From assembly GCA_045540515.1 (NCBI GenBank), contig JAZQHJ010000173.1, positions 6,347-70,346 on the forward strand: a stretch of 64,000 nucleotides of DNA, written 5' to 3'. Each line of letters starts with the position of its first letter. The first letter of the stretch is position 1. The translations under genes and the position numbers were made by a program. Source of the DNA: Eubacteriales bacterium. GTDB taxonomy: Bacteria > Bacillota > Clostridia > Oscillospirales > CAG-272. Below the pieces are notes generated by a model. That model ran no database searches, had not been told where the DNA came from, and saw only the letters and a list, made by a program, of their open reading frames with translations. Below are positions 36,119 to 59,602 of this stretch, piece after piece.

Positions 36119-37297
36119 CTAGTTTATAATCCAGCTAACATCGAACGCCTCGTATGGCATAGGTGGCTCTAAACGGCTTAGCATTCTTACAATAACCTCA
36201 TTTGGCACAACGGCACCTCTGCCCTTGTTGCGTTTTAAATTTTCGTTCCACTCGGCTTCTAGAAAAATTATCTTAACCCTTGCGCCATATTCCTCAAAAA
36301 GCGAGATTTTAGAGGCTCTTTGTAATGCGTCAATGCTTGTTGAATTCCAAACAAAGGGCTGTTTTTTTCTTAAATATTCTCTTGAAAGCTCGGTTGCTCT
36401 TGCAAGAACTCTGCCTTGATTTTTTGTTGGTAAAATGCCAAGCTCGATTCTGATGTCATCAAGCGAGACAACGGGCAGATGCGAAAAATTTTTTGAAATA
36501 AAGGTGTCCTTGCCCGTTCCAGGTAAGCCACAGAGCATAATAACATCACCAAAGGACGAATCATAAAGCTCGTCGTTTAAATAGCTTGTTTTACCTTGAA
36601 AATATGCTCTTTGTGAATATTTGTCCTTGAAATTGTATGGAGCATCAAGACAGCCAAGCTCCCTTGCCATTTCGACACAAAGTGCAACTCTTTCAAGATA
36701 ATCGTCCCTGCCTGAGCCTATGCGACCAAGCACGTCGGCTCGTTCAAGTAAGCAAAGCTTATTTATTGAAAACGAGGGCACAGTCTGAGCAATTGATGCA
36801 ATTTTTACAAGCTTTTCTGTGGCATTTTTGTCGCTAAAAGCAAATGGTGGGTAGGAGTGATACCTTATAAGGCTACAAATACATTCCCTCATTTCCTGCT
36901 TTTTGCTTGTGCCACAAAGCCCAAGCTCACGCCACAAAAGCTCCCTTGTCATGCTTGCTCCAACAATTGAATGTCTTGGAGATATGTAGTTGCCATTTTC
37001 ATCGAGCCTTGTGCATTTCGTCTTGCCTATATCGTGCAGAAGTGAGGCAAGAAAGAGAATGGCTTTGTCAAAATCGGAGGCAGACCTATATTCCTCTTGA
37101 CGCACAAGCGCCTCGCAAACAAGCCTTGTATGCTCAAAAGCATCACCCTCGGCGTGGTAAAGCGGGTATTGTGGTGTGCCCTTCATAGCATCAAAAATAG
37201 GACCTAGCGAGGTGGAGTAAAGCCCATTCCAATCAATATGCTCATTTTTTGGCACATAGCCAAGAATCAAGTCAAGCTTAATATCCGCCATAGGCAC
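36119..37297 (-). CDS. HD-domain phosphohydrolase fused to P-loop polynucleotide-kinase-like domain
   Basis: N-terminal HD motif LLHDIGK with an upstream His (YHAEGDAFEH). C-terminal Walker A in MLCGLPGTGKDTF. The gene overlaps the ligase gene by 20 nt. Confidence 0.7.
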   Translation of the reverse strand: MPMADIKLDLILGYVPKNEHIDWNGLYSTSLGPIFDAMKGTPQYPLYHAEGDAFEHTRLVCEALVRQEEYRSASDFDKAILFLASLLHDIGKTKCTRLDENGNYISPRHSIVGASMTRELLWRELGLCGTSKKQEMRECICSLIRYHSYPPFAFSDKNATEKLVKIASIAQTVPSFSINKLCLLERADVLGRIGSGRDDYLERVALCVEMARELGCLDAPYNFKDKYSQRAYFQGKTSYLNDELYDSSFGDVIMLCGLPGTGKDTFISKNFSHLPVVSLDDIRIELGILPTKNQGRVLARATELSREYLRKKQPFVWNSTSIDALQRASKISLFEEYGARVKIIFLEAEWNENLKRNKGRGAVVPNEVIVRMLSRLEPPMPYEAFDVSWIIN

Positions 37298-38072
37298 TAC
37301 CGTCCTTTAATAAATTTGGAACAATGGGCCTTGATTGCCAATGAGAGCCAGATTCCATAACTGCTTGAATGAAGCCCTTGCGAACATATTTAAGTCGGTC
37401 AACGGTGAGTCCGTTTTCCTCAACCTTAATATATAGCCCCTCCATAAGCCTTGAAGGGTCCGTCTCACGCACCTGTCTTTCAACATCAAGGTCAAGCCTT
37501 TTGGCAAGTGCTCTTAAATTATCAATATGATTTTCAGTAATGTAATTTGAATTGCCAATGAGGGATAAAATTTCCTCCTTGCTAGAAAAAACACCACTTG
37601 CCAAAACGGGAACACTTGATATGATTCCCATTTTATCAGTTAGCATTTTTCTTGACGGAGTGTCTAAAAACACCCCATTTTCCCTGTCGTAAATATCAAA
37701 TTCCATAAAGTAGCTTGGCAAGGCATCGTAGAAAATAGTGTGCTTTGCATACATCCATTCGCCATACATTATATATTTAACCCCAAGAGTGTCAAAAAGA
37801 ATGTCCTGATTTGTGCTTGCCCATTGCTTTAATAGGTTATAGTGCCTTTCTCTGTATCCACCGTCAAGATAGTGTCCTCTGCTTTGCAAAAGTAAGTTGC
37901 CATTTTCATCAAAGGAGATTGCAGAGTTAGCACCGTCAATCTTTTCCTCTATAACAATATTTTTTCCAAGAATTTCGCTAAATGGCGCTTGTGAAAGGTC
38001 CTCATCACCAGGACCAAGACGTGAGCCCCTTAAATGCCTTGTTCTTGGATATTTTACTATATTAAAATCCAT
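37278..38072 (-). CDS. ATP-dependent RNA ligase family protein (PF09414-like)
   Basis: The nucleotidyltransferase motif I (KxDG) appears in EEKIDGAN, preceded by YPRTRHL. ATG at 38072 follows GGGAGAA; the track's TTG at 38084 is less likely. Confidence 0.7.
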   Translation of the reverse strand: MDFNIVKYPRTRHLRGSRLGPGDEDLSQAPFSEILGKNIVIEEKIDGANSAISFDENGNLLLQSRGHYLDGGYRERHYNLLKQWASTNQDILFDTLGVKYIMYGEWMYAKHTIFYDALPSYFMEFDIYDRENGVFLDTPSRKMLTDKMGIISSVPVLASGVFSSKEEILSLIGNSNYITENHIDNLRALAKRLDLDVERQVRETDPSRLMEGLYIKVEENGLTVDRLKYVRKGFIQAVMESGSHWQSRPIVPNLLKDGSAYGGY

Positions 38073-38087
38073 AATTTCTCCCAAAAA

Positions 38088-38780
38088 TTAGTTATCAATT
38101 TTTGCAATCATAAATAAATGTCCCGAAACGCCGTCAAAGGACAGCCTTGTTACGCCACAGGCATTAAAGTATTTTGTAAGCCTTTCCTTTGTGAGCAGGT
38201 GAATATGCTCGGGATTGTCATCCTCCTTGGAGGGAACGGTTACAACGATGAATTTTTTTGCAAGACTAACAGCGTTCTTAATAGCCCCCTCAACATCGGG
38301 AATATGCTCCAAGACCTCAAGCATAGTGACCACGTCAAAGCTTTTTTTAGGCAGGGACGTGTCGCAAATTGACTCGTTTACAACTGTTAGGTTGTTTGCT
38401 CCGCCGTTTGCGATATCATTAAGCAGAGTAACCCTTTTGTCAAGAATTTCAAGGCTTGTAACCCTAATATGGGGCATTTGCTCCATAAAGGGTAGAAGAA
38501 ACACCCCTCTGCCACTGCCAACATCTAACAGATTTTCAAAATAGATGCTTTTTAAAAAGCCAAGCACCTTAACAACCCTTGGTAGTGTTCTGTCACTTTT
38601 CTTAAAATAGTATAGCTTGATTTTGTGCTCGGAGGCAAAGTCAAAAAGAGCATTGCACTCGTCCTCGGTAAGGTCATCAAGGCTTTTTTCTAAAACTTGT
38701 GTATCAAATGGTAGCCCAAGCCTTTTAATCTGTCCTCTGATTACAGCAAGAGCATATTTGGAATAAAATCTTTCATTCAT
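38088..38780 (-). CDS. class I SAM-dependent methyltransferase
   Basis: Motif I LLDVGSGRGVF and post-I/II blocks (VTSLEILD, FDVVTMLEVLEHI). It is the first gene of the three-gene minus-strand operon. Confidence 0.75.
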   Translation of the reverse strand: MNERFYSKYALAVIRGQIKRLGLPFDTQVLEKSLDDLTEDECNALFDFASEHKIKLYYFKKSDRTLPRVVKVLGFLKSIYFENLLDVGSGRGVFLLPFMEQMPHIRVTSLEILDKRVTLLNDIANGGANNLTVVNESICDTSLPKKSFDVVTMLEVLEHIPDVEGAIKNAVSLAKKFIVVTVPSKEDDNPEHIHLLTKERLTKYFNACGVTRLSFDGVSGHLFMIAKIDN

Positions 38781-40141: not shown

Positions 40142-41008
40142 TTGGGCTGGAAGGACGACAGAAAAAAATATTTTGTTCTTAATGAGCAGGTATTGCAGTA
40201 TGCAAAAAAGGCTACCGCTGCTACAAGCACAAACGAGCTTGCAAAAATATGTCAAAGAATGTATATTGCGGATTATATAAACCTTGAAGGCATAGATTTG
40301 TATCTTGCAAAGCATGCGCTGACGGCAGTTTACAGAGTTTTGAAGCAATATCCTGCTTTAAGGGGCGAAATTCATTATTTTGGTACGTTAAGGGGCTTTG
40401 CTGAGAAGAAGGATGCACTTTATGAGTTTTTATATAAGGATGTACCGTTAGATTTAAAGCAAGGTGTAAAGAGAGAAAGTGACAAGCTGGTAAGTGATAT
40501 AAAATACACTCTTGACAATGCAGGTCTTGCCGTTGCCTTTTTAATACCGGCAGATAAATATAGGTTTTCAGGAATTATAATTGATGAAAACGATTTTGAC
40601 CACAAAAGCATTCTTTTGAATTTGGAGGAGGCGGTAAGACAGGGCTTTAATCCTGTTGGATGCTCAACCGTAAAGTCCGTCGTTGACCACGAGCTAGGAC
40701 ATTTACTCGATTATTGGTTAAACGTAAGTAATGATGCGGATTTCAAATCAAACTTTGATAAGGCAGGTCCATTTTACATAGAAAAGCACCTTTCGCAGTA
40801 CCCTGTATGCAGTGGAAGAACAAACTACGCAGAGGCACTTGCTGAGGGATTTGCAGAGGCACAAAACAATAGCAGCCCACGAAAAATTGCATGCTATGTA
40901 AAAAGAAAAATAGACGAAGCCTATGCTCAAAAAATAATTGAGCTAGACAACAAGGACAAGCATCAAAAAAGCTTTGCAGACAAAATCAAAAACTTACTTA
41001 AATTATAA
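40142..41008 (+). CDS. putative zincin-like metallopeptidase (HExxH)
   Basis: TTG start follows AAGGAGGG. HELGHLLD is followed about 50 aa later by EALAEGFAE, a candidate third ligand or helix. No signal peptide or TM segment is present. Confidence 0.45.
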   Translation: MGWKDDRKKYFVLNEQVLQYAKKATAATSTNELAKICQRMYIADYINLEGIDLYLAKHALTAVYRVLKQYPALRGEIHYFGTLRGFAEKKDALYEFLYKDVPLDLKQGVKRESDKLVSDIKYTLDNAGLAVAFLIPADKYRFSGIIIDENDFDHKSILLNLEEAVRQGFNPVGCSTVKSVVDHELGHLLDYWLNVSNDADFKSNFDKAGPFYIEKHLSQYPVCSGRTNYAEALAEGFAEAQNNSSPRKIACYVKRKIDEAYAQKIIELDNKDKHQKSFADKIKNLLKL

Positions 41009-41022
41009 AAAGGAGATACAAA

Positions 41023-42207
41023 ATGAAACAGGAATACACGTTAAGAGAGCTACTTGAGCTAGGAGCTGCTGAATCATATTATAGTGCAACTGTTGAAAGA
41101 TTCTCGCTAGCAAGATATTTCATGAATTTTATGAGAAATTATATTGATAGCAGAGAGGAAAACAAAACCAAGGCAAGTATAAATATGAATTTGGACACGC
41201 TTTGTGTAAAAATTGAAAGGAACGACCTTGGTGAAAATCAATACATCTTTTCTTTAAAAAACAAGCCAGTTGATGAGAATAACCCATTTGACAATTTTGC
41301 TTACGTAGGAAACAAGCTACTACAAGCAGTTGCTGAAAAGGGGCTTACATATTCAAAGCACGTTCCCTCAAAAAAGGATAAAATACAAGCAGTAGCAATC
41401 ATTTTATTTGAAATATTGTTCGCTTGCCATCCATACAAGGGAAATACATATTTTACAAGCGCTGTGGAAAGCCCAGAGAAGGAGCTAGAATTCTTTACAA
41501 ATAGCAAGCTTTTCATATTTGATGACGCAGTAGGAAAGAAAATTAGAATTAACGGCTACCACGATGTTCCATTTGCTCTTTGGGAAATGCTTTCCGAGGG
41601 ACAAAAGAGCTTCCTTAAAAAGGGCATTAGTGGAGCAGTTAAAAAGGAGGATTTTGCTTCCTTTTATGATGAATGGTATGTAAAATTCAAGTACAAGAGG
41701 ATAAATTATTTAACTCAATGCGGTCAAGAGATTTTCGGACTTGAATTTGAAAAGGATGATTTCGTTTTATTTGCAACTGATATTTTCTATGGAAAAAATG
41801 AGATAATTTGCTATTCCGCTGACCAAAGCAATTACAGAACCTGTGCAAAATGTACCTTTGCAGAGCAAAAGGTTAAGGCTGTTTCATATAAGGCAAGGGT
41901 AACACTTACTAACGCTGGCCTTGGAAGAAAAGCAACAGAGAGCACAGAAAAGGAAATTTCCATAAAGGTTGGTATGGAGATAACTGGACGAGACCTTGAT
42001 AAGAAAAATGGTGGGGACGAGGTTGTATTTACTGTAATTCCGAGCAAGAAAATAAATACAATAGGACTCCATTATACAGGTGACCAGGTTGTTACAGCCG
42101 TTTATCCAAACAAGGACGTTTATATGCATGAAAATGATGCGAAATTCGTAATTGCCCCTGGTACAGCTATTTATCTTGCAGGCAATTTGAAAATAGAAAT
42201 CTTATAA
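41023..42207 (+). CDS. pseudokinase-like protein (kinase C-lobe-like region without Gly-loop/Lys) with C-terminal beta-rich domain shared with the adjacent kinase
   Basis: KIQAVAIILFEILFACHPYKG aligns with DRYSLAIMLFMLLTNGHPLEG of the next gene. INMNLDTLCV occupies the catalytic-loop position. There is no GxGxxG or VAxK. The C-terminal segment resembles the kinase's C-terminal segment. Confidence 0.45.
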   Translation: MKQEYTLRELLELGAAESYYSATVERFSLARYFMNFMRNYIDSREENKTKASINMNLDTLCVKIERNDLGENQYIFSLKNKPVDENNPFDNFAYVGNKLLQAVAEKGLTYSKHVPSKKDKIQAVAIILFEILFACHPYKGNTYFTSAVESPEKELEFFTNSKLFIFDDAVGKKIRINGYHDVPFALWEMLSEGQKSFLKKGISGAVKKEDFASFYDEWYVKFKYKRINYLTQCGQEIFGLEFEKDDFVLFATDIFYGKNEIICYSADQSNYRTCAKCTFAEQKVKAVSYKARVTLTNAGLGRKATESTEKEISIKVGMEITGRDLDKKNGGDEVVFTVIPSKKINTIGLHYTGDQVVTAVYPNKDVYMHENDAKFVIAPGTAIYLAGNLKIEIL

Positions 42208-42226
42208 AGTATTAGGAGAATAAAAA

Positions 42227-43648
42227 ATGCCAAAGAAAATAATAGTAACCTCAACGGTTAATCAAACATACGAGGTCGTTTTTGACCCAACAAATCCAAC
42301 AGGATATAAAACACTTGGAAGTGGAGGACAGGGAACTGTTTATGTTGCAAAAAGGCAAAGTGACGGAAAGCAATTTGCATTAAAGCTATTTCACAAAAAA
42401 ACCCCACCAAAATTTAACGAAAATATTAAAGAATTGGTTCAAACACCATGTCCACACCCAGCTTTTGTATGGCCACTAGAATTTATTGCCTCAGCCCCAA
42501 ATGGTGGAATTGGCTACATAATGGAAATTTACGATAGCGCCTTTCGCAAATTTGACGACTTTGTAGTTCACGGCACAGCCAAGGTGAAGTCAAGAAGGGT
42601 TCAGTTAAATGCATTAATTGAGCTATACAGTGCTTTTGCAAAGCTACACGCAATTGGTCGTTGCTTTCAGGATATAAATAACGGAGCAATCGTAATTGAC
42701 CCTGAAAAGGGAAGAGTTCGCATTTGCGATTGCGAAAACGTAATTCCAAACGGAGAAAAAATGCCTGTTATGTACGATGACAATGGAAGAGAACAGTATA
42801 TGAAGGGCGTTTCAAGATTTATTGCACCAGAAATAGAGCTAGGTGTAAAAAATCCAGATGTTTATACCGATAGATATTCACTTGCAATTATGTTATTTAT
42901 GCTTCTTACAAATGGACATCCACTCGAAGGATCAAAAAGATTTAAATACAACAAAGAGCAAATTGTAACAGCTGACGTTGAGCATGATATATTTGGAAGA
43001 AATCCAATATTTATATTTAGCTCAGCCAATAAAACAAACCCACCAGATCCAGAAGCTGACAGAGGTCCAATAGCAGCGTGGCCAATGATTCCTGAAACAG
43101 TTAAGGTGTTGTTTGAAAAGACCTTTTCTGCCGGCGCTCCTATAAACGGCTCAACAAGCAATTTGAATAACAGAGAGCAAAGGCCAACAGAAGACCAGTG
43201 GAAAAAGGAGCTTGAGAAATGGGCAGATATGCTAGTTCCTTGCTCTGGCTGTAAAAAATCCTTTGTTGCAAAAATCAATGCAAAGGAGAAAAGGGCGGAT
43301 ACTGTTTGCCCAATATGCAAGAAGGATAACAAGTATAATTTCCCACTTATGGGAGTTTTCAATGGGGGAATTCAAACAAGAATAGTATTGCTTTCACCAA
43401 ATAAGAAGGTGCCATCAGAAACTATTTTTGCTGATAGCTCCCTTGAACCAGTTATGCATATTATTCCATCTAAAAAGGAGCCAGGAACCTATGGAGCTGT
43501 AAATCTATCAAATAATGAATGGATGTGCACAGTAGGCCAACAAGGTACAAGGGTTTCTCCTGGCAAGGTAATAAAGCTAATAGATGGTATGACAATCGAA
43601 ATAGATTATGAAACAAAATGTAAGATTTTAGTCCCTAAAAAGGGTTAA
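42227..43648 (+). CDS. Ser/Thr protein kinase (atypical catalytic loop) with Zn-ribbon and C-terminal beta-rich domain
   Basis: Gly-loop LGSGGQGTVY, Lys in FALKLF, catalytic Asp in CFQDINNGAIVID, DFG-equivalent ICDCEN, APE in FIAPEI, and a CxxC...CxxC ribbon (CSGCKKSF...CPICKKDN). Confidence 0.8.
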   Translation: MPKKIIVTSTVNQTYEVVFDPTNPTGYKTLGSGGQGTVYVAKRQSDGKQFALKLFHKKTPPKFNENIKELVQTPCPHPAFVWPLEFIASAPNGGIGYIMEIYDSAFRKFDDFVVHGTAKVKSRRVQLNALIELYSAFAKLHAIGRCFQDINNGAIVIDPEKGRVRICDCENVIPNGEKMPVMYDDNGREQYMKGVSRFIAPEIELGVKNPDVYTDRYSLAIMLFMLLTNGHPLEGSKRFKYNKEQIVTADVEHDIFGRNPIFIFSSANKTNPPDPEADRGPIAAWPMIPETVKVLFEKTFSAGAPINGSTSNLNNREQRPTEDQWKKELEKWADMLVPCSGCKKSFVAKINAKEKRADTVCPICKKDNKYNFPLMGVFNGGIQTRIVLLSPNKKVPSETIFADSSLEPVMHIIPSKKEPGTYGAVNLSNNEWMCTVGQQGTRVSPGKVIKLIDGMTIEIDYETKCKILVPKKG

Positions 43649-44490: not shown

Positions 44491-44516
44491 TGTCCGCCGT
44501 CGTAGGACGGTGGACA
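44491..44516 (+). other. strong intra-operon RNA hairpin (11-bp stem, GTAG loop), no T-run
   Basis: TGTCCGCCGTC gtag GACGGTGGACA (one G-U pair), located 23 nt after the vWA stop codon. Confidence 0.5.
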
Positions 44517-44635
44517 AGCTCTGGTTACAAAAAACAAATGACCTTAAAAGTCCAAGCACGGCTTGGCAAAAAAGAAATAAATTTGAAAACAGCTTGGCAT
44601 ATGCCAATAACATAAAATTAGGAAAAGGAGCTAAA

Positions 44636-45358
44636 ATGGCAAAATTACAAGAATCCTCAAAACAAAAACAAATGGAACTGCTAGTAGTTCCAATTATAAA
44701 TGTATCAAAGAGTATGAAGGGCGAAAAAATTTCTTCAGTCAATGAGGCTATGAGCAACTTTGCTTCCCAGCTTCTTGCGATTGAAGAAAACGAGATAAAT
44801 GTGTTGATTGCTCCACTTGTTTTTTCAAGCAAGGCACAATGGATAAAATTAAATGATAATAACCCAGTAAGACCAGCAGATTTTATCTGGGAGGACATAA
44901 GCGCAGATGATGAAGAGGCAAATCTTGGTAGCGCTTACGAATTACTATATGAAAAGCTTCAAACAAAGGAAAACGGCGGTTGGATGCAATATAAAGATAA
45001 GGGGCTATGTCCAATTATTTTGCTTATTTCTGATAATTCTGTTAGCCATAGTGCAAATTGGCAGAAGTCATATGAACACATAAGCGGGCTTTTTTGGTTT
45101 CAATGGGCATTAAGGTTTGTAATAAAGATTGAATCAAATGACGCTCTTGAAAGCTTTGTTAAATGTAGAGAAAATATTTACGATGTTCATCATTTAAGGC
45201 ATGATGTTGGATGCTTTGTTCATCCAATTGTGTGTAGCTATGATAGGTATTGCGACGACGAACCACATTATGAAAATGAGCCCGTTACTCCTCAAAGCAA
45301 CGAGGATGACACAAAGCCAATAGAGCCAATAGATTTCGAAGACCTTTTTCTAGAATAA
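44636..45358 (+). CDS. vWA domain protein with degenerate MIDAS
   Basis: ATG at 44636 follows AAAGGAG. The MIDAS positions read NVSKS (D to N), DDEEANLG (T to A) and LLISDNS (DG to DN). The C-terminus is acidic. Confidence 0.65.
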   Translation: MAKLQESSKQKQMELLVVPIINVSKSMKGEKISSVNEAMSNFASQLLAIEENEINVLIAPLVFSSKAQWIKLNDNNPVRPADFIWEDISADDEEANLGSAYELLYEKLQTKENGGWMQYKDKGLCPIILLISDNSVSHSANWQKSYEHISGLFWFQWALRFVIKIESNDALESFVKCRENIYDVHHLRHDVGCFVHPIVCSYDRYCDDEPHYENEPVTPQSNEDDTKPIEPIDFEDLFLE

Positions 45359-46140: not shown

Positions 46141-47244
46141 ATGGAAAAGGGATTTTTTATATCAAGAAGAGGTGGCTCTCACGCAAGCTCAGGAACACCA
46201 ATGCAGGATTATTCATCAGCGGTAAGATGCGATGATTATAGCATTGCAATAGTTTGTGATGGACACGGATCAGCCAAGCATTTCAGAAGTCATATCGGCT
46301 CACGTCTTGCAACCGAGGTAATACAGGAAAATCTAATAGATTTTGTAAATGCGTATCCAAATTATGAAAGCGCGAGTAAGGATTTTGGCAAAAAGGCTGA
46401 AAGATTAAAGCTAAATATTTTAAATACATGGATTTCCAAAATTGATGAGGATATAGACAAAACTCCTTTTACCGAGGAAGAGCTTAAAAAGGGTGTAGGC
46501 AACAAGGGTGTTGATTATTTAAGCTACTATACCAAGGTTACACCATATGGAACAACTGCTCTTGCGGTGCTTTTGACCAAGGATTATTATGTAGCGCTTA
46601 TGCTAGGTGATGGACTTATTGCAAAAATGGCTCCTTATACTGAAGCGACCGAGGAAACCTTTGAGGGAAAGCGTGAAATTAAAAGAGGCGACCCGATTGA
46701 CTCTATGTGCAACGAGGATGCGGCATATAAAATGCACGTAAAGTGCGTTCCTGTATCAGAGGACGAAAAGGGACTTGCATTTGCAATTTCCTCTGACGGA
46801 TATTGTGAAGCAGGCGTTTTTCCAACCTGGAAAATGCTAAATTGGCCAAAGAAATACATAGTAAGATATGCAGTTAGAGGTATTGACGAGGCAATAGAAG
46901 CAATTACACCTCAATTTGACGAGATTTCAGCAAAAAGCGAAGCAGAGGACGACATTTCAATGGCGATTGCTTGCAATGAACCAGAGTTATATATAGAATG
47001 GGCAAAGGCGGAGAGAGAAAAGGCTCTTAAAGCAAAGGCAGAGGCAGAGAGAAAAGCCGAGGAAGAGAAAAAGGCAGAGGCTGAAAAGGAAGCAACGGCG
47101 AAAGCAGAGACAGAAGCAAAGGAAGAAGAAAAGGCTCAAAGCACAGAGCAAGAAAGCGCCCAAGCACCTGATGAAAAGCCAGAGCAGGAAAATAAAGAAA
47201 CCGAGCAGACCCCTGAAAAGGAAGAGGATGCTCCAAAGGAATAA
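46141..47244 (+). CDS. PP2C-family Ser/Thr phosphatase with E/K/A-rich low-complexity tail
   Basis: MQDY...AIVCDGHGSAKH, LMLGDGLI and AISSDGYCE blocks. The last ~90 aa are KAEAERKAEEEKKAEAEKE... Confidence 0.75.
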   Translation: MEKGFFISRRGGSHASSGTPMQDYSSAVRCDDYSIAIVCDGHGSAKHFRSHIGSRLATEVIQENLIDFVNAYPNYESASKDFGKKAERLKLNILNTWISKIDEDIDKTPFTEEELKKGVGNKGVDYLSYYTKVTPYGTTALAVLLTKDYYVALMLGDGLIAKMAPYTEATEETFEGKREIKRGDPIDSMCNEDAAYKMHVKCVPVSEDEKGLAFAISSDGYCEAGVFPTWKMLNWPKKYIVRYAVRGIDEAIEAITPQFDEISAKSEAEDDISMAIACNEPELYIEWAKAEREKALKAKAEAERKAEEEKKAEAEKEATAKAETEAKEEEKAQSTEQESAQAPDEKPEQENKETEQTPEKEEDAPKE

Positions 47245-47279: not shown

Positions 47280-47801
47280 ATGGAGCATTTATTCATTTTA
47301 GTTGACACCTCGGGAAGCGTTGTGCTTGAAGGGATTCAAAAGATTGGACAAATTAACGATTTTTTAAGAGATGTGATAATTGCAACAATAGACCATCTTA
47401 AATCAATTCATGTTATTTTGTATTCTGATTTGCCAAGGGTTTATTTTAGAAAATCCGACGGAAGGGGATTCGGAGAAATCAAGGACTATGAATTTACAGG
47501 ACGCTCTAATCTTGGAAAGGCATATGCATTAACTAAAAAAATAATGGATGAGCAATCAGTTGATTGCTCAAATTCCATTATTGCCATAATATCGGACGGA
47601 GAGGCAACCGATAATTACAAAAAGGAGCTTATGCTCCTTGACCCAGACCAGAAATCAAAGAGGATTGCAGTGGGCTTGGGTGCAGAGCAAGATACACTTG
47701 AAGACCATATAAACGAAACAGGTGTAATTATATCCGATATAACAAGCGATAATGCAAAACGAGAGTTTATAGGCAACACAATCAATACAATTACTATATA
47801 A
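47280..47801 (+). CDS. short vWA domain protein (intact MIDAS)
   Basis: FILVDTSGSV, GRSNLGKAY and AIISDGEATDN. The protein is 173 aa. Confidence 0.7.
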   Translation: MEHLFILVDTSGSVVLEGIQKIGQINDFLRDVIIATIDHLKSIHVILYSDLPRVYFRKSDGRGFGEIKDYEFTGRSNLGKAYALTKKIMDEQSVDCSNSIIAIISDGEATDNYKKELMLLDPDQKSKRIAVGLGAEQDTLEDHINETGVIISDITSDNAKREFIGNTINTITI

Positions 47802-47813
47802 AAGAGGATAAAA

Positions 47814-50800
47814 ATGAACATATCAGCAAAAGATCTGGCAAAATTTTTACAGAATTCCGTTTCCTTTGATTTTTCAAAGGAAACAATTTTGTCGTACAAT
47901 AAAATACGCAGAAGATATGATGATTTTTATGCCTTGGAGAATAAAAGAGCATTTATTGCCTTGCTTAATGATATAATCGGTGATGACAATCAGTTGGTTG
48001 ATATTTTTGCTGACCTTCAAGCAGCCGATAGAGGATTCAGATTTTTTGCAAACGAGGAAAATAGGCAGTCAAGAAGCGTATTAAACGCAATCGGCTATTT
48101 TTTAAGCGACAGACGATTTGATTATCACAAAAACGATATTGCAAAGGTATATTTTGCAATAAACACATGGCTCTGCTTCTACGGTGCAAATGAGGTTTCA
48201 CTTCACTGGACCGTTTGTCCTCTATGCACAAAAAAGATTGTATTTGGACAATGCAGTAATTTAAGCTGTAAGAAGAAGGAAGAGGAATTTATTCCTATAA
48301 TGCTTGAGCTTCAAGCAATTTTAAAGGCAGAAAACGAAGGCAAGGAAATGCCTTTGCCAAAATATTTTAAAACGATTGAGCCAAATGCCGAGTTTGGCTT
48401 TTACAAAACAAGCATTGAGCAAAAAAGGAACGAAAGAAAGGCGCAACAGGAGCAACAGGAGCAGAAGGACAAAAAGAAAGCAATTGAGCTTGCAGAAAAG
48501 GAGCTTGTAAAGATTTCTGAAAAGGCAAGGCTCGAATCCGAAAAGGAAGTTCCTGATTTTGATTCAATTTTTAAGGAGCTTACAACAAATCCTATAATCC
48601 TTGAAGCACTAAAATACAAGGACAAGAGCTTTGAGAAAAAGCTCAATGCCTTAAAGGAGCAAATTCAAGGCTATAAGGACAGCGTTTATTCAAAAAAGGA
48701 GCAAGAAAGACAAAAGGCAATAGCTATAAATGACTTTAAAGCTTTTTCTCTCCTAAAAGCAAAGCTGGATGCAGAGCTTGCAAACAAGGGAATTGAGCTC
48801 CCTCTTGAAGAGGTTAGAGAGCTTTTGGCAAAGGCAGATGAGGCATTTAATAAGGTTGACACTGCAAATACAAGATACCCAAGCCTGTATTCAAAGTCCG
48901 AGAAGGAAGTCATTAAGGACTACAAGGAAAGCACCAAGCCAAAAACCGAAAAGAGAATCGAGGAAAGAGTCGAGGAGGAACGCCTTGACGACGCCAAGGA
49001 CAAGCTTGTAATAGCTATTGGTGAAATTGAAAAGGAATACGAAAGATGCAAGAATCTCAAGGACGGCGCAAGTGAGCTTTGGGAAAAATTTATAAACGAG
49101 ATTGAGAAAAACGAGGAATATATTGACTGTCGTGAGGTTCCAGCGTGGGATGCTGTTTATTTGGAAATAACAGGACCAATAAAGCAGAAGCTTTCAAATT
49201 TGCTTACAGAGGAAACCGAACAAAAGAAAAAGCACTTTATGTCAGCAGTTGTTCCTTTAAAGGATAAGGTAAGCAAGGCAAAGCCAGCGGACAAGTCTGC
49301 AAATGCTTTATCTAACGAGCTTAAAGCAATAAAAGCTAACAAATACTATTCGAGCATAAAGCAAAGTGCTGAATACAAGAAGGAAATTGCTTGGCTTGAA
49401 AACAAAATAAACGACCTACAAGCAAAGGAAAGGGCATATTTCAAGAGAAGAAAGACAGCCGTTTCAGCAACATCTATAACTATTTTGAGCCTTGCTATAA
49501 TTTTGTACTCACTGCTTGCGTACATTATTCCAATTTCAAGGGTTCAAATCAAATCAACAAAAGCCTCGACTAATAATTATTCAGTTGAAAGCTTAAAGGA
49601 CAACGAAACTGAATTTTTGATAATAGACGAGTATTTACCACATTTCTTTTTACAAAAAAGTAAAAGGGTTTCAAGCATTTCAAGCGAAGCCTTTAAGAAT
49701 AATGAATATCTTAAAAAATGCACACTTCCTGCTTCAATTGAAAGAATAGGAGAGGGAGCATTTGATGGATGCACAAGCCTTGGTCTAGTAGTGCTACAAT
49801 CCAATGAGCCACCAAAAATTGAGAGTAGCTCGTTTGATAATTGTAACACAATTTTTGTCGTGCCAGAGGAAAGCTACTCTGCGTATATGCAAAGCGAGGA
49901 CTGGGCAAGACACAGAACAAAAATTTTCCCAAATTACAACAACCAAGACGGCTTTGGCACTGTTATGTTCGATTCAAATGGTGGAAGCAGTGTTGAAACA
50001 ATGAAAACAATTCAGCTAAATGCACAGGTAAGCACACTTCCAACCCCAACCAAGGAGGGCTACGCCTTTGCAGGCTGGTATTACATTGATGCAGAGGGCA
50101 AGCAAGCCGTAATGAGCAATGATGATGCAGTGTTTTCAACAAGCACAAAGCTTGTTGCCAAGTGGAAGCAGGGCGTATATTCAGTAAGCTTTGAGCAAAA
50201 CGATGGCACAGGAAAAGCAACAAGCGCTGACTATACATATGGTGAAAGATGGGAGTCATTCCCACAGCCTACAAGGGATGGATATACCTTTGAGGGCTGG
50301 TATATAAATGACAAGAAGCTATTAGAGACATCACTTGTTAGCATTACAGGAAATGCAACTGCAATAGCAAAATGGACTGCAAACGAATACAGTGTTAGCT
50401 TTGATTATGCAGGCGGAGAGTCTTCAACAGAGCAGACAACGGTAATTTTTGATGGAAAATACGGAGAGCTTCCACAATCAACAAAAGTGGGCTATACCTT
50501 TGGTGGTTGGAGCTATGAAAATGAAAGCATTAGTTCAAGCACAGTAGTTAAAGCACCAAAAAATCATACGCTTGTTGCAAAATGGATTCCAAACACCTAC
50601 ACAATCCGTTATGAGGCTATGGGTGGAATAATAAGCGAAGAGACTATAATCTGCGAGTACGATAAGCCAGTGACACTCAGCGCTCCGCAAAGAGCTGGTT
50701 ATACCTTTGTTAACTGGGAGTGCGACGGAGTAACCTATCTTGCAGGAGACGAGGTTCTCAATCTTGCAAGCACAAGTGCTGAGTTTGTTTTTGAGGCTAA

Positions 50801-53800
50801 TTGGAAAGCAAACACCTATAAAATTAAATACGATTCAGACGGAGGAAATGTAAACAAGCAGGAGCAGGATTGCATATATGATGTAGATGTCGTGCTTGAA
50901 ACACCGACAAGAAATGGCTATAAGTTCCTTTACTGGTCATATGGCTCTTACAAGCTGTATGGTGGAGAGGTTGCAAGCAATCTTTCATCCACACAAGGGG
51001 ATGAAATACAGTTAAAGGCAATATGGAGAGCAATTACATATACAATTGAATATGATGCAAATGGTGGAGAGCAGGTAAACAATAGCGTTCTATGTACATA
51101 TGATGTTCCTACAATACTAGAAACTCCAACAAGAGATGGCTACACCTTCAAGCATTGGACACACCAAGGGACAATTTATGAGGCTGGACAAAGCATTGTA
51201 AATCTTACAAGCGACGATGAAGGAAAAATCAAGCTTGTTGCCGTTTGGGTCGCTAAGGAAAATGTTATCACCTTTAATCCAAATGGTGGTACAGGAGAAA
51301 TGACCGACGTTAATATACTTTCCGATGGTAGTGTACAATTACCACTTAATGCATATGCAAAAAATGGCTATACCTTTATAGGTTGGAGCACACAGAAAAA
51401 TGGTAGCGTTGAATATAAAGACGGAGATACCTTTGAGGCAGGAACAGAGTCAAGCTATACTCTTTATGCCGTTTGGGAGGCAAATGAAAACAAGCTAATT
51501 CTTTATGCAAATAACGGTACACAGGAGAGCATTGAGCTAACTGTTAAAACAGCACAGACAATAACAATACCTAAAAACACCTTCACACGTGCAGGATATA
51601 CCTTTACAGGCTGGGAGCTGGCAGATGGAACAGGTGCATCCTACAAGGATGAGGCAGAGATAGTAATGCCTGCAAGTGAGGAATCATACCTTGTTGCAAT
51701 ATGGACGGCAAATGATAACACCATTATTTTTGATGCCAATGGAGGAAGTGGAGAAGCAGTTGAACAGCATATCAAGACTGATGAAAATAAGCCACTTATT
51801 GCTTGTAGCTATACAAGAAAGGGTTATAAATTTATAGGCTGGTCAAGGACTAAGGACGGAGGAGTAAACTATTTAGATGGCGCAGGCTATCAAATGGATG
51901 CAAGCGCAACAACAACTCTTTATGCGGTTTGGGAAATCGTAAATTACGATATTACCTATGAGCTAAGCGGAGCAGAAAATTCAAGCTCAAATCCAACAAG
52001 CTATAACATAAGCTCAGGCACAATTGTACTTGAAGCTCCAAGCAAGGCTGGTTATACCTTTGATGGATGGTTCCTTGATGAATTAGCAACTCAACCAATT
52101 ACTCAAATTGATTCAACAAGGCTTGAAGCAATTACTCTTTATGCTAAATTCACAGTAAATACAAATAAGCTTCACTTTAATCCTATGGGAGCAAGTGGAG
52201 AAATGGCAACTCTTGATGTTCAAACGGGCAAGATAGTTACCTTGCCAAGCTGTACATTTACAAAGCCGGGTTACTATTTTGTAGGTTGGAGCACAGAAAA
52301 TGGCGGAGACGTGTCGTATTTTGCTTCCTCATCGTACGAAATGGGAACAGAGGCTGAATATACTCTTTATGCCGTTTGGGATAAGGCTGTATATACCATA
52401 AGCTATGAAACAAACGGTGGAACAAATTCAACCTTAAATCCATCCGAGTACCACATAGAAAGTGCAGAAATTATTTTGAAATCACCTACAAAGGCAGGCT
52501 ATACCTTTGGAGGCTGGTATTCAGAATCAACAATGACAACTGATAAGGTGGAAAAAATATCAGCAGGAAGCACGGGCAATATAACCCTATATGCAAGGTG
52601 GATTGCAAATACAAATACACTCCACTTTAACGCAAACGGCGGAACGGGAGCAATGAATGACGTTAAGCTTCAAACTGGCGAGGAAATGAAAGCATTGCCA
52701 AGCGCTACCTTTGAAAAGGTCGGCTACAACTTTGCAGGTTGGGCACTAACACCTAATGGAAGCTCAATTTATGCAAACGGAGCAAGCTTTGAAATGGGCA
52801 CCGATGCTGAAATGACACTCTATGCAGTATGGACAGACTTTTCATATACTATCTCATATAATTTGGACGGAGGAATAAACAATCAACAAAACCCAAGTGG
52901 CTATGGTGTGGAAACCAACACAATAACACTTGCATCTCCAACCAAGGCAGGCTACACCTTTATGGGATGGTATTCTGAGGATTCCCTTGAAAACAAGATA
53001 ACACAAATTCCAAAGGGAAGCACAGGAAATATTGTGCTTTATGCAAGCTGGGAAGCAAACGAAAATACAATAATATTCAATCCAAATGGCGCAACTGGCT
53101 CAATGAGTAGCATTAAGCTGAAAACAGGCGAGTCGATAAAGCTACCAAGAAATACCTTTAAGAAGGAGGGCCATACCTTTAAGGGCTGGGCAACCACTGC
53201 AAATGGAGCAGTTGCTTATGCTGATGGCTCTGCTTATGTAATGGGTACTGGCTCAACCTATACGCTATATGCAGTATGGCAGGCGAATTCATATGTTGTA
53301 ACATATGCAGACCATTCAAAGACAGTTATCTATGGTCAGTCATACGGAACGCTTTCAAAGCCAAGCACAGAGCCAACAGGATATAAGTTCTCACATTGGA
53401 CATACAATGGAGCAACAATAAGTGCTGGAACAACTGTAACAACTGCGTCAAGCCATACCCTAACACCAGTATGGGTAGCACGTACATATACAGTTTATTA
53501 CGGACCATATTCAAAGACAGTAACATACGATCAGCCATATGGAGAATTTAACACAGTATCAAAGACAGGATATACATTCAATAATTGGAGCTATAATGGA
53601 GCAACAATAACCTCAAATACAATTGTTAAAACGGCATCAGACCATACCTTAAAGGACAACTGGGTAGTAAACTATTACACGATTTCAATTTCTGAAAGCG
53701 GAGCATGGGCAACAGTTGAGGTTAATGGAGTTACATATTCCTCTGAAACTACAATTTCAGCTCCATACAATGCAAGCATAAAGGTTACATTTGGTGCAAA

Positions 53801-54608
53801 TAGCAATTATCAAAATCCTACATGCTCGTACAATGGAACTGCAATATCAAGTGGCTATACAACAACTATGCCAGCAGGCAACGTAAGCATAAGTGCAAGC
53901 GCAACAGAAATTCCATCAGGTGGTAGTTGCTTTGCAAGAGGAACACTGATTGCACTAGGAAATGGCAGAGTGGTTAAGGTCGAGGACCTAAATGTTGGAG
54001 ATGAAATCTTATCATTTGACCACGCAACAGGAAAATTTGTAGCTCAAAGGGTTGGATTTATCTTTAAGGCATTTGAAAGTGTTGAAATAAACGAGCTATT
54101 CTTTGAAAATGGTAGCTCAATTACCTTAACTAACTATGGCGGACACGGTATGTATGATGCTACTCTTGGAGAATATGTACTAATAACACCAGAAAACGTA
54201 AATCAATTTATCGGGCACGAGTTTGCAGTAATGAATGGTGAAAAAATAGGTACAACAAGGCTTGAAGCATATGATTACAGAATTGCATATGTTGAGCGAT
54301 ATGACGTTGTAACCCACAACACCCTTAACTGCATAGCGAATGGATTTATTACATGCTCTGACGTGCTTGTAAGCATTTGCAATGTATTTGAATTTACAAG
54401 CAATTTTACGTATGACCTTGAAAAAATGGAAAACGATATTAACACCTACGGCTTATACACCTATGAGGAGTGGAGTGAATATCTAACCGAGGAGGAATTT
54501 AATTCCTTTGGAGGTGCATACTTCAAGGTAGCTGTTGGCAAGGGCTTAATTACAAGGGATGAAATATTACAGCTCCTTTGGTTCTTGCACAGCTGGAACA
54601 ACATTTAA
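47814..54608 (+). CDS. 2264-aa single-pass membrane protein: cytoplasmic Zn-ribbon + coiled coil, TM helix, BspA-type LRR, 17 Listeria/Bacteroides (Flg_new-type) repeats, beta-rich spacer, C-terminal Hint domain
   Basis: CPLCTKK...CSNLSC ribbon (48215-48269). K/E-rich coiled coil at about aa 170-540. TM helix AVSATSITILSLAIILYSLLAYIIPI (49458-49535). LRR IERIGEGAFDGCTSL. GY(T/K)FxGW occurs 17 times. CFARGTLIALGNG...THNTLNCIANGFITCS is the Hint domain. Confidence 0.8.
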   Translation: MNISAKDLAKFLQNSVSFDFSKETILSYNKIRRRYDDFYALENKRAFIALLNDIIGDDNQLVDIFADLQAADRGFRFFANEENRQSRSVLNAIGYFLSDRRFDYHKNDIAKVYFAINTWLCFYGANEVSLHWTVCPLCTKKIVFGQCSNLSCKKKEEEFIPIMLELQAILKAENEGKEMPLPKYFKTIEPNAEFGFYKTSIEQKRNERKAQQEQQEQKDKKKAIELAEKELVKISEKARLESEKEVPDFDSIFKELTTNPIILEALKYKDKSFEKKLNALKEQIQGYKDSVYSKKEQERQKAIAINDFKAFSLLKAKLDAELANKGIELPLEEVRELLAKADEAFNKVDTANTRYPSLYSKSEKEVIKDYKESTKPKTEKRIEERVEEERLDDAKDKLVIAIGEIEKEYERCKNLKDGASELWEKFINEIEKNEEYIDCREVPAWDAVYLEITGPIKQKLSNLLTEETEQKKKHFMSAVVPLKDKVSKAKPADKSANALSNELKAIKANKYYSSIKQSAEYKKEIAWLENKINDLQAKERAYFKRRKTAVSATSITILSLAIILYSLLAYIIPISRVQIKSTKASTNNYSVESLKDNETEFLIIDEYLPHFFLQKSKRVSSISSEAFKNNEYLKKCTLPASIERIGEGAFDGCTSLGLVVLQSNEPPKIESSSFDNCNTIFVVPEESYSAYMQSEDWARHRTKIFPNYNNQDGFGTVMFDSNGGSSVETMKTIQLNAQVSTLPTPTKEGYAFAGWYYIDAEGKQAVMSNDDAVFSTSTKLVAKWKQGVYSVSFEQNDGTGKATSADYTYGERWESFPQPTRDGYTFEGWYINDKKLLETSLVSITGNATAIAKWTANEYSVSFDYAGGESSTEQTTVIFDGKYGELPQSTKVGYTFGGWSYENESISSSTVVKAPKNHTLVAKWIPNTYTIRYEAMGGIISEETIICEYDKPVTLSAPQRAGYTFVNWECDGVTYLAGDEVLNLASTSAEFVFEANWKANTYKIKYDSDGGNVNKQEQDCIYDVDVVLETPTRNGYKFLYWSYGSYKLYGGEVASNLSSTQGDEIQLKAIWRAITYTIEYDANGGEQVNNSVLCTYDVPTILETPTRDGYTFKHWTHQGTIYEAGQSIVNLTSDDEGKIKLVAVWVAKENVITFNPNGGTGEMTDVNILSDGSVQLPLNAYAKNGYTFIGWSTQKNGSVEYKDGDTFEAGTESSYTLYAVWEANENKLILYANNGTQESIELTVKTAQTITIPKNTFTRAGYTFTGWELADGTGASYKDEAEIVMPASEESYLVAIWTANDNTIIFDANGGSGEAVEQHIKTDENKPLIACSYTRKGYKFIGWSRTKDGGVNYLDGAGYQMDASATTTLYAVWEIVNYDITYELSGAENSSSNPTSYNISSGTIVLEAPSKAGYTFDGWFLDELATQPITQIDSTRLEAITLYAKFTVNTNKLHFNPMGASGEMATLDVQTGKIVTLPSCTFTKPGYYFVGWSTENGGDVSYFASSSYEMGTEAEYTLYAVWDKAVYTISYETNGGTNSTLNPSEYHIESAEIILKSPTKAGYTFGGWYSESTMTTDKVEKISAGSTGNITLYARWIANTNTLHFNANGGTGAMNDVKLQTGEEMKALPSATFEKVGYNFAGWALTPNGSSIYANGASFEMGTDAEMTLYAVWTDFSYTISYNLDGGINNQQNPSGYGVETNTITLASPTKAGYTFMGWYSEDSLENKITQIPKGSTGNIVLYASWEANENTIIFNPNGATGSMSSIKLKTGESIKLPRNTFKKEGHTFKGWATTANGAVAYADGSAYVMGTGSTYTLYAVWQANSYVVTYADHSKTVIYGQSYGTLSKPSTEPTGYKFSHWTYNGATISAGTTVTTASSHTLTPVWVARTYTVYYGPYSKTVTYDQPYGEFNTVSKTGYTFNNWSYNGATITSNTIVKTASDHTLKDNWVVNYYTISISESGAWATVEVNGVTYSSETTISAPYNASIKVTFGANSNYQNPTCSYNGTAISSGYTTTMPAGNVSISASATEIPSGGSCFARGTLIALGNGRVVKVEDLNVGDEILSFDHATGKFVAQRVGFIFKAFESVEINELFFENGSSITLTNYGGHGMYDATLGEYVLITPENVNQFIGHEFAVMNGEKIGTTRLEAYDYRIAYVERYDVVTHNTLNCIANGFITCSDVLVSICNVFEFTSNFTYDLEKMENDINTYGLYTYEEWSEYLTEEEFNSFGGAYFKVAVGKGLITRDEILQLLWFLHSWNNI
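49956..53666 (+). repeat. in-frame tandem protein-repeat array (17 units of ~63-75 aa, four subtypes)
   Basis: The repeats fall into four subtypes, which I label A-D. Reading along the gene, the order is D x6 (aa 715-1146), A x3 (1150-1375), alternating B-A x3 (1376-1822) and C x2 (1826-1951). Each unit carries a GY(T/K/N/Y)F.(G/N/H/Y)W core. Confidence 0.8.
53928..54356 (+). other. Hint (Hedgehog/intein-like, BIL-type) domain
   Basis: It starts at Cys2039 (CFARGTLI, the intein block A pattern) and contains VVTHNTLNCIANGF (block F-like). It ends ITCS instead of the canonical terminal HN. An 83-aa tail follows. Confidence 0.7.
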
Positions 54609-57883: not shown

Positions 57884-58171
57884 ATGAAGCTTCCAGAAAG
57901 AATAGAAGAAATAAATATGGATCCCGAAGCTGTAAGGGAGCAAATCAAAAAAATATCTGGAGAATTTGAAAAAATAGGCGAAATTAGCGAAAGAACGAAA
58001 AACAATCTAGTTGCGCTTGAGGGTAACTTTAAAAGTGGAAACTATATAAGAGCAGCAGAGGCAATAGGATCTGTAAGAGCTAAAATGACAAAAGCAGAGG
58101 TGGAATTTGATGAGCTTATTCGCTCTTGCGACTCCCTTGTAAAGAAAGTTGAAGAAATAACAAAAAGATAA
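57884..58171 (+). CDS. WXG100-like small helical protein (FKSGN variant), paralog of 58454-58741
   Basis: 95 aa and predicted all-helical. The central turn LEGNFKSGNYIRAAEAIGS sits where WXG100 proteins carry W-x-G. The gene lies immediately downstream of the FtsK-like ATPase. Confidence 0.5.
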   Translation: MKLPERIEEINMDPEAVREQIKKISGEFEKIGEISERTKNNLVALEGNFKSGNYIRAAEAIGSVRAKMTKAEVEFDELIRSCDSLVKKVEEITKR

Positions 58172-58182
58172 GGAGGCTAATT

Positions 58183-58440
58183 ATGGCACAGGGACAAATC
58201 ATAGAAACAAAGGGCATATTGCTTCAAGTTATAAAGGATTTAACAAAATATAAGGATGAAGTTGATAAAATAATGAAATCAATTCTTCAAAAGACCAATG
58301 AGCTAAATAACGATTGGAAGGATGCTCAATACACCAAGTTTCAGGCTTATATTGAGGATATTAAAAAAGGGATCGATAATGATTTGAAAGAGCTTGATGA
58401 ATGTGTTGCAGTATTAAAGAAAAGAGCGGAGCTCTATTAA
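58183..58440 (+). CDS. WXG100-like small helical protein (WKD variant)
   Basis: 85 aa. The central NNDWKDAQYTKFQAYIEDI resembles the W-x-G-x-A-x-x-F core with Gly replaced by Asp. Confidence 0.5.
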   Translation: MAQGQIIETKGILLQVIKDLTKYKDEVDKIMKSILQKTNELNNDWKDAQYTKFQAYIEDIKKGIDNDLKELDECVAVLKKRAELY

Positions 58441-58453
58441 TTAAGGACTAAAA

Positions 58454-58741
58454 ATGGGAAATATGGATGCATATGTAGATACCAACGCATTGAGAGATGG
58501 TGGTTCAAGTCTTGTGCAAAAAGCAGAAGGAATGCTTGAAATAACAAATCAACTCAAAAATAATCTTAACGCAATTTCTAATTATTTTAAAAGTGGAAAT
58601 CAAGAGCGTGCAGCAGAGGCAGTTGGAAATTCAGCCGTCGTTGTAAAAGACGTAGCTGATAAGCTGGAAATGCTTAACAAAAAGATGAATGAGCTTGCAT
58701 GCTGTATTGACGAATACGAGGAATGCACCTATGGCAAGTAA
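58454..58741 (+). CDS. WXG100-like small helical protein (FKSGN variant)
   Basis: 95 aa. The central ISNYFKSGNQERAAEAVGNS is paralogous to 57884-58171. The tail reads CCIDEYEECTYGK. Confidence 0.5.
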   Translation: MGNMDAYVDTNALRDGGSSLVQKAEGMLEITNQLKNNLNAISNYFKSGNQERAAEAVGNSAVVVKDVADKLEMLNKKMNELACCIDEYEECTYGK

Positions 58742-58759
58742 TAATAAGAGGTGAATCTT

Positions 58760-59320: not shown

Positions 59321-59328
59321 GGTGAAAA

Positions 59329-59601: not shown

Positions 59602-59602
59602 T

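Follow-up and report, generated by a model that had tools for sequence, protein, structure and literature searches.

Why would a bacterial operon keep half of a protein kinase directly beside an intact one? This question is raised by a 64,000-nucleotide (nt) stretch of the genome of a Eubacteriales bacterium (contig JAZQHJ010000173.1), called the window here, whose coordinates are used throughout. Two co-directional genes on its + strand encode related proteins. The downstream open reading frame (ORF; 42227-43648) encodes a kinase of 473 amino acids (aa), and the upstream one (41023-42207) encodes a 394-aa paralogue in which the N-lobe is missing; each is preceded by an AGGAG Shine-Dalgarno sequence about 9 nt before its ATG. 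Both belong to an extended TerY-P module, a triad of TerY-like vWA protein, PP2C phosphatase and Ser/Thr kinase whose genes are adjacent in the window. The reading favored here, with a probability of roughly 0.6, is that the pair consists of a kinase and a non-catalytic, kinase-derived adaptor of a TerY-P-type Ser/Thr phospho-switch.

The 473-aa protein is a Hanks-type kinase of the YegI family with a C-terminal zinc ribbon and an FHA-like beta-sandwich. It matches the Pfam Pkinase profile with 52.2 bits (E 7.7e-14; cut-off 31.7 bits), and its AlphaFold2 (AF2) model, built on an alignment of 35 sequences, has the bilobal kinase fold (predicted local distance difference test, pLDDT, 93.7; predicted template-modeling score, pTM, 0.92). 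Foldseek matches of this model include CDK2, CaMK/CaMKII, CASK and other kinases at E-values of about 1e-12, and no transmembrane segment is predicted. An earlier reading of the DNA made without database searches (the sequence-only reading) had quoted a set of kinase motifs, all of which are present: GSGGQGTV at residue 31, FALK at 50 (Lys53), QDINNGAI at 148 (Asp149), CDCEN at 167 (Asp168) and APE at 200. Well over a hundred relatives of 420-490 aa align over more than 90% of the length, and the layout of kinase, CxxC...CxxC and beta-rich domain is therefore a property of the family. Profile comparison with hhalign aligns E. coli YegI with this kinase family at E 1.9e-17 across residues 7-332, taking in the GDVNQNS loop, the LIDSDS motif, HPYSG, the RPTxxxW extension and a Cys motif. 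A 166-aa antisense ORF (42862-43362, - strand) lies fully within the kinase gene and is most likely spurious.

Whether such a protein can act as a kinase depends on residues that were counted in an alignment of 128 family members. The Gly-loop glycines G31, G33 and G36 together with K53, D149, D168, E202 and D215 are all found in the 473-aa protein and are kept in 97-100% of the 128 relatives (G33 in 125, K53 in 126, D149 in 128, D168 in 127, E202 in 125 and D215 in 128); Arg319 is also essentially invariant. The catalytic loop had been described as non-canonical, with QDINNGAI instead of HRDLKPxN. This holds, but the deviation is not peculiar to the protein: the consensus Y-Q-D-[IL]-[NS]-x-G-N (YQDINxGN), with I-C-D-N-D-N (ICDNDN) as the DFG equivalent, is found throughout the YegI/TerY-P kinases, which makes it a family signature, and what is specific to the clade of the window kinase is the change of the Asn at position +5 to Ala154 (FQDINxGA), plus CDCEN. 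The Lys (+2) and the metal-binding Asn (+5) of HRDLKxxN are thus replaced by Asn151 and Ala154. Position +2 is N in 88 and S in 38 of the aligned kinases, and position +5 is N in 96, S in 12, A in 11 and G in 8. For the αC Glu expected to form a salt bridge with the β3 Lys, position 65 is K, E, D or N across the family, and the window kinase carries E65 and E69. The zinc ribbon noted earlier is present at C339-C364, with a spacer of 18 residues and not of 19 as had been counted; its Cys are kept in 113-121 of the 128 members, and matches to zinc-ribbon profiles in Pfam are recurrent but weak among 35 kinases. YegI itself, with Ser at the motif-VI Asn position, is an active Ser/Thr kinase in vitro (bioRxiv 10.1101/819920), which makes activity of the 473-aa kinase plausible, if unproven. 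The kinase is probably catalytically active and would be opposed by the PP2C phosphatase.

The 394-aa protein combines a kinase C-lobe, a four-Cys metal site and an FHA-like sandwich in one folded unit without an N-lobe. Its ORF begins only 14 nt past the upstream stop codon, which leaves no space for an N-lobe. As had been noted, the protein lacks the Gly-loop and the Lys; it has no GxGxxG motif, and no member of its family has a Gly-loop or a β3 Lys. BLASTP aligns residues 123-205 with residues 218-303 of the kinase (E 3e-6) and reaches only E 0.44 at the extreme C-terminus, so that the likeness there needed a stronger test. Comparison of 16 members of the 394-aa family with 35 kinases by hhalign gives a probability of 99.5 and E 5.7e-23, with residues 4-394 on 106-468. 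The aligned span takes in αD/αE, relics of the catalytic loop and DFG, αF-αI (where CHPYKG is paired with HPLEG), the post-kinase extension, the zinc region and the C-terminal domain. The proposed kinship to the kinase C-lobe is hence borne out, but it begins at αD/αE and is not confined to αF and beyond, and the shared beta-rich segment at the C-termini is covered as well. At the position of the catalytic Asp, the 394-aa protein has Asn40; the Asp found there in a more distant sub-family is a relic. The string 'FLNPDNI' of the 394-aa family was considered as a remnant of HRDLKPxN and rejected, since hhalign places it on the β7-β8 turn 'FFIDPxxG'.

Structural prediction agrees with this picture, and on the structural side the sequence-only reading is largely right. 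The AF2 model of the 394-aa protein (pLDDT 87.2, pTM 0.86) has an all-helical core in the C-lobe part, with partial PDB matches of about 200 columns to PknB, PknA, B-RAF and others. The expectation of a C-lobe-only fold, raised by the sequence-only reading as a point to check by modeling, is upheld by these matches to kinase C-lobes; the model also matches FHA domains. Four Cys (C233, C263, C274 and C277) are invariant or nearly so in the 16 members and fall in the region aligned to the kinase zinc ribbon, which points to a re-wired metal site around an inserted beta-sheet. No transmembrane segment is predicted for the protein, it belongs to no family in Pfam, NCBIfam or PADLOC, and the profile of its family matches no kinase, FHA or EssB among PDB sequences.

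The partner family is rare and unnamed, and appears to be undescribed in the sources searched. A word-indexed homologue search with the 394-aa protein recovered one relative, and a rerun with a 16-sequence profile gave three family members and one weak kinase match; an exhaustive HMMER search was therefore needed. It covered 1.84 billion representatives and returned about 35 clusters at E<1e-10, all of which start at the same point, and the 16 aligned members share invariant core residues. A scan of GTDB species genomes with the 394-aa sub-family and then with the kinase sub-family yielded no confirmed relative. Judged by these alignments, the truncated copy is under strong purifying selection, and it arose from a YegI-type kinase through duplication followed by loss of the whole N-lobe. 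The N-lobe-less paralogue is presumably unable to bind ATP.

What, then, is the beta-rich domain that ends both proteins? The suggestion that it might be FHA-like finds support at the fold level. With the whole 394-aa model as the Foldseek query, FHA domains of APLF and MDC1 are the top PDB matches (ranks 1-4, 9, 11, 13, 22 and 28), with probability 0.97-1.0, a template-modeling score normalised to the target of 0.56-0.63, about 115 aligned columns and E 5e-3 to 0.1; the corresponding domain of the kinase is assigned as FHA-like by homology (hhalign). The C-terminal domains show the 11-stranded beta-sandwich of the FHA fold, at moderate E-values, and resemble the APLF and MDC1 domains in being sandwiches of about 100 residues. 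The domain common to both proteins can be called FHA-like at the level of fold, and this identity of the beta-rich domain in these kinases seems to be undescribed in the sources searched. The kinase family has a motif of its own in the sandwich, G-x-x-N-x-[ST]-x-x-x-W (N426, S/T428 and W432 conserved), which is replaced by G-L-K-Y-L-x-D-x-P in the 394-aa family; the FHA-like domains of the two families therefore probably bind different ligands.

The pairing of the two genes can be followed across related loci (L001 to L019). The order kinase-vWA-PP2C is kept in all 13 related loci examined. The conserved cassette is an orthologous set of genes for a zincin-like protein (262-288 aa), a 394-like protein, the kinase, vWA, PP2C, a small vWA protein and a giant membrane protein whose N-domain is conserved. 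A 394-like gene lies directly upstream of the kinase gene in the window and in L001-L007, L010 and L011. Each of the 6 partner loci combines it with the small vWA gene and the giant-protein N-domain; the seven plain triads (L008 and L014-L019) have none of the three. The 394-like gene and the kinase gene are always adjacent and co-diversify. Among the loci compared, only the window and L006, its closest relative, have FtsK and WXG genes. A 119-aa TerY_C-like zinc-binding protein is encoded between the PP2C and small vWA genes in L001, L010 and L011 (for example L010:15824-16183) and is missing from the window, L004 and L006.

Fused and additional copies add to this diversity. Two loci encode fusion proteins, L010:10001-12424 (807 aa) and L011:9089-12412 (1107 aa): each starts with a 394-like module and continues into a full-length kinase domain whose Gly-loop and catalytic Asp are gone, and in each locus a separate gene for an intact kinase comes next. 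L011 also has a third kinase paralogue (L011:13798-15132, 444 aa) with the full layout of kinase, zinc ribbon and beta domain, in which both the catalytic loop (YQDFRFEDI) and the DFG region (FCYNES) are degenerate; it is one more pseudokinase of this operon. A different N-lobe-less paralogue of 419 aa (L014:3586-4845) precedes the TerY-P kinase in L014, a locus of classical Ter type that also includes genes for C-C bond lyase, PRTase and TRSP. It aligns with the kinases by hhalign at E 2e-19 and retains the motif G-N-x-T-x-x-x-W, and a low-complexity linker stands where the kinases have the zinc ribbon. The arrangement may have originated twice, or L014 may show a less diverged version of it.

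Is the loss of the metal-binding Asn tied to the presence of a partner? The Asn at +5 is changed to Ala or Gly in 7 of 7 kinases with an N-lobe-less partner, and it is also lost in four kinases without one. The strict rule that its loss means that a partner is present was rejected for this reason. Furthermore, in a neighbor-joining tree the six kinases with a partner of the 394-aa family group together as one clade, outside which the L014 kinase falls. The association thus amounts to at most two independent co-occurrences and is suggestive only.

The sequence-only reading had set the pair against secretion systems and had overlooked its primary context, the TerY-P triad. The triad kinase in the window is of the YegI type with a C-terminal zinc ribbon, and a passage in PMC10542128 describes the TerY-P kinase as fused to a zinc ribbon. 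The arrangement is like that of E. coli YegL-PphC-YegI in having vWA, PP2C and Ser/Thr kinase genes in one operon, and the homology of the kinase to YegI extends to the DxNxxx catalytic loop and the post-kinase extension. YegI differs in having transmembrane helices where the window kinase has the FHA-like domain. The window cassette also departs from the known TerY-P arrangement in its extra N-lobe-less paralogue, its zincin-like protein, a second, small vWA protein and a giant leucine-rich repeat (LRR)/Flg_new membrane protein, and its main vWA gene is triplicated, with a single orthologue in L006 and L010. The whole window is free of ter genes. No ter, tellurite-resistance or nucleic-acid-processing genes were found in the cassette, such genes occurring only in the distant L014, and a search of NCBIfam gave nothing specific. 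Association of TerY-P with FtsK and WxG genes has already been noted (PMC4978471). The features of the window are collected in Table 1.

Table 1. Domains of the kinase pair and other genes of the cassette, in window coordinates.
Feature	Coordinates	Strand	Details
288-aa zincin-like protein, first cassette gene	40142..41008	+	HExGH...E motif, no Pfam match
394-aa protein: kinase C-lobe remnant, αD/E to αI, and family-specific extension	41023..41688	+	residues 1-222
394-aa protein: re-wired zinc site with inserted beta-sheet	41689..41868	+	residues 223-282; Cys conservation, hhalign
394-aa protein: FHA-like beta-sandwich	41869..42207	+	residues 283-394 plus stop; Foldseek, hhalign
473-aa protein: Hanks-type kinase domain, YegI/TerY-P type, and family-specific post-kinase extension	42227..43231	+	residues 1-335
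473-aa protein: CxxC-N18-CxxC zinc ribbon	43232..43330	+	residues 336-368
473-aa protein: beta-sandwich, about 10 strands (AF2 secondary structure)	43340..43648	+	residues 372-473 plus stop
Three tandem TerY-like vWA paralogues, 259, 282 and 234 aa	43689..46108	+	Pfam VWA
PP2C-family phosphatase, Glu/Lys-rich tail	46141..47244	+	Pfam PP2C_2 E 3.7e-24
Small 173-aa vWA protein	47280..47801	+	Pfam VWA_2 and VWA
2264-aa single-pass membrane protein (giant)	47814..54608	+	transmembrane segment 548-579, LRR_5, 15 Flg_new repeats
1067-aa FtsK/EssC-like ATPase, no transmembrane segment	54668..57871	+	Pfam FtsK_SpoIIIE E 2.8e-15
Three small helical WXG100-like proteins, 95, 85 and 95 aa	57884..58741	+	Pfam WXG100, TIGR03930 E 1.5e-5

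The other members of the cassette help to define what the pair may work with. The zincin-like protein is probably a metallopeptidase: orthologues at the same position in L006, L010 and L011 are 35-50% identical, the motif residues H183, E184, G186, H187, E231 and E235 are invariant in the four orthologues, and the L010 orthologue has a weak ATLF match. YegL matches the 259-aa vWA protein at E 6e-7. The middle vWA copy (44510-45358, GTG start) has NVSKS in place of the DxSxS motif of the metal-ion-dependent adhesion site (MIDAS), and judging from this replacement it may be without metal binding. The tail of the PP2C protein is a Glu/Lys/Ala-rich low-complexity stretch of about 85 residues (roughly residues 285-367), and the shorter orthologues in L001 and L011 are without it.

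The giant protein has a cytoplasmic N-terminal region of 547 aa with a Cys-rich CxxC...CxxxxC motif and a long coiled coil, of which the first ~285 residues are conserved in L001, L004, L006 and L010; the L001 homologue is much shorter, and only these residues are conserved there. A Hint-like module, under the Pfam cut-off, lies near its C-terminus and is followed by about 150 further residues. This layout is reminiscent of self-cleaving polymorphic-toxin or surface proteins. Upstream of the cassette (36119-38780, - strand), the window contains a Pnkp/Hen1-type RNA-repair-like trio, namely an HD plus AAA_33 protein (polynucleotide kinase-phosphatase-like), an RNA ligase and an S-adenosylmethionine methyltransferase, which is syntenic in L006 immediately upstream of the kinase cassette.

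The secretion context supposed by the sequence-only reading is real: an EccC/EssC-like ATPase and WXG100-like genes do lie downstream. The ATPase domain matches EccCa (TIGR03924) at E 2.5e-22, with 79 bits where the curated cut-off is 509, and its match to EssC (E 8e-17) is likewise under the cut-off. The protein has one recognisable P-loop domain (residues 497-660) and a coiled coil of about 180 aa at its start, a layout that is atypical for the ATPase of a type VII secretion system (T7SS). One of the small helical proteins (58183-58440) scores 28.2 bits against Pfam WXG100, over the cut-off of 27.3 bits, and the two adjoining genes match weakly. For YukD-like and EspG-like components, there was no Pfam match in 57884-59971, and no fold-level search was made for either. 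The T7SSc of Bacillota (TscA-G) has an FHA-less EssC-type ATPase, WXG100, the Ser/Thr kinase TscD, the vWA protein TscE and the PPM phosphatase TscF (Garrett et al. 2024, PMC11217815), and the extra EssC-like ATPase and three WXG100-like proteins of the lineage studied here resemble it in that EssC-like ATPase, WXG100, kinase, vWA and phosphatase genes stand together. However, TscD is anchored in the membrane, whereas the window kinase is a soluble protein with both a zinc ribbon and an FHA-like domain; the ATPase of the window is without a transmembrane segment and has a single recognisable ATPase domain; and no N-lobe-less paralogue is described in T7SSc. The system as a whole belongs to known kinds, TerY-P and T7SSc-like.

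How could a kinase and its half-copy work together? In the adaptor reading, the 473-aa kinase and the PP2C phosphatase would form a phospho-switch, and the 394-aa protein would probably serve as its docking or regulatory subunit. It might pair with the kinase through C-lobe contacts. Alternatively, it might act as a duplicate docking platform, whose FHA-like ligand loop has diverged, for other components, most likely for the small vWA protein and for the giant LRR/Flg_new protein by way of its cytoplasmic N-domain. The module could thereby couple events at the giant surface protein to phosphorylation of vWA or secretion components, and in this lineage the coupling may extend to the EssC-like ATPase with WXG100-like substrates. 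Several points weigh against this proposal. Kinase activity is uncertain given Asn151 in place of the catalytic-loop Lys and Ala154 in place of the metal-binding Asn, and the acidic residue of αC is not fixed to one column of the kinase alignment. The FHA-like assignment relies on Foldseek E-values of 5e-3 to 0.1 with a single model; unlike in true FHA domains, Pfam FHA matches neither 35 kinases, even at E 10, nor the 394-aa protein, and the canonical phosphothreonine-binding signature (Gly-Arg, Ser-x-x-His and Asn-Gly) is not conserved in the alignment of either family. The adaptor role and its partners are inferred solely from gene order and co-occurrence. In addition, the ATPase is without a transmembrane segment and falls far under the EssC/EccC cut-offs, so that the link to secretion is loose, and most related loci do not show this link.

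Other explanations of the pair were weighed against the same evidence. The 394-aa protein could chiefly be a substrate or competitive inhibitor of the kinase, with its C-lobe or the hairpin loop LGRKATES (residues 300-307) placed at the active site and an FHA-like domain reading the phospho-form. The adjacent, co-diversifying genes, the retention of α-helices F to I and the conservation of this basic-Thr/Ser loop within the sub-family of the window would suit such a pseudosubstrate, but the loop is not conserved across the wider 394-aa family and the FHA-like domains are without the canonical phosphothreonine-binding residues; we regard this explanation as doubtful, although it deserves some weight. 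It is unlikely, to a slightly greater degree, that the whole cassette is a TerY-P-type anti-phage or conflict system in which the pair acts as sensor or switch and not as a secretion regulator. TerY-P-like modules have been described both as defence systems in their own right and within CoCoNuT and Ter conflict loci (PMC10542128; PMC4978471), the related L014 holds the Ter-linked genes named above, and the kinase matches PADLOC kinase models such as PD-T4-6 and mad6. These matches are generic, however, and the vWA, PP2C and 394-aa proteins match no PADLOC model. Housekeeping genes flank the cassette, in which neither a nuclease nor another effector was identified.

Still less probable is a literal form of the EssB comparison drawn by the sequence-only reading, in which the 394-aa protein would take the structural place of EssB/YukC, a protein that binds the FHA domains of EssC with its pseudokinase domain, in a type VII secretion machine. 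The ATPase and WXG100-like genes downstream and the union of a kinase remnant and an FHA-like domain in a single chain would agree with it, and T7SSb EssB does contact FHA domains that are without phosphothreonine-binding residues (PMC11217815). But EssB has a complete bilobal pseudokinase fold, a transmembrane helix and an extracellular domain, whereas the 394-aa protein has no transmembrane helix, no N-lobe and no YukC/EssB match in Pfam or NCBIfam. EssB is outside the top 50 Foldseek matches of its model, the family profile matches no PDB sequence, and 394-like genes occur in L001 and L010, loci without FtsK or WXG genes. Membership in the EssB family is thus not supported, and the likeness, a dead kinase-fold protein working with FHA-type domains that lack phosphothreonine-binding residues in a secretion context, is best taken as a functional parallel by analogy. 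The idea that the 394-aa ORF is the remnant of a decaying gene, or was annotated in error, can be practically dismissed: half of the kinase domain is gone and no Pfam family exists, yet conservation refutes this idea, as the ~35 divergent clusters keep start, length and invariant residues, and the confident AF2 model, good Shine-Dalgarno sequence and conserved synteny also speak against it.

The nearest conceptual relative of the 394-aa protein lies outside bacteria. KIND, found in Spire, PTPN13 and very-KIND, is a module derived from a kinase C-lobe that has no N-lobe, is non-catalytic and serves protein-protein interaction. The likeness is that a kinase C-lobe without N-lobe or catalysis is reused for interaction, and it is by analogy only, since the Pfam KIND profile does not match the 394-aa protein. 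KIND is eukaryotic and evolved independently, whereas the bacterial module keeps a zinc site and an FHA-like domain and sits beside its parent kinase. A bolder extension, which we consider speculative and unlikely, is that N-lobe-less kinase paralogues are an undescribed class of bacterial regulatory subunits and a prokaryotic counterpart of KIND, evolved at least twice beside TerY-P kinases that lack the metal-binding Asn of the catalytic loop. The unit of dead C-lobe, zinc site and FHA-like domain would then be an obligate partner that turns the atypical kinase on or off and physically links a giant receptor at the surface with the phospho-control of a minimal secretion ATPase of type VII-like character.

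Returning to the adaptor reading, what does it mean for TerY-P biology? TerY-P triads are widespread, being found as YegI/PphC/YegL in E. coli, in Ter and CoCoNuT loci, in some defence islands and in T7SSc, and their mechanism is not understood. To this picture the cassette adds a conserved, dead, C-lobe-only copy of the kinase, which suggests that C-lobe, zinc site and beta-sandwich form a docking platform whose importance goes beyond catalysis. As a natural separation-of-function variant, the dead copy could be used to identify what binds this platform, and the 394-aa protein would be a bacterial instance of the KIND principle, the reuse of a kinase C-lobe for protein interaction.

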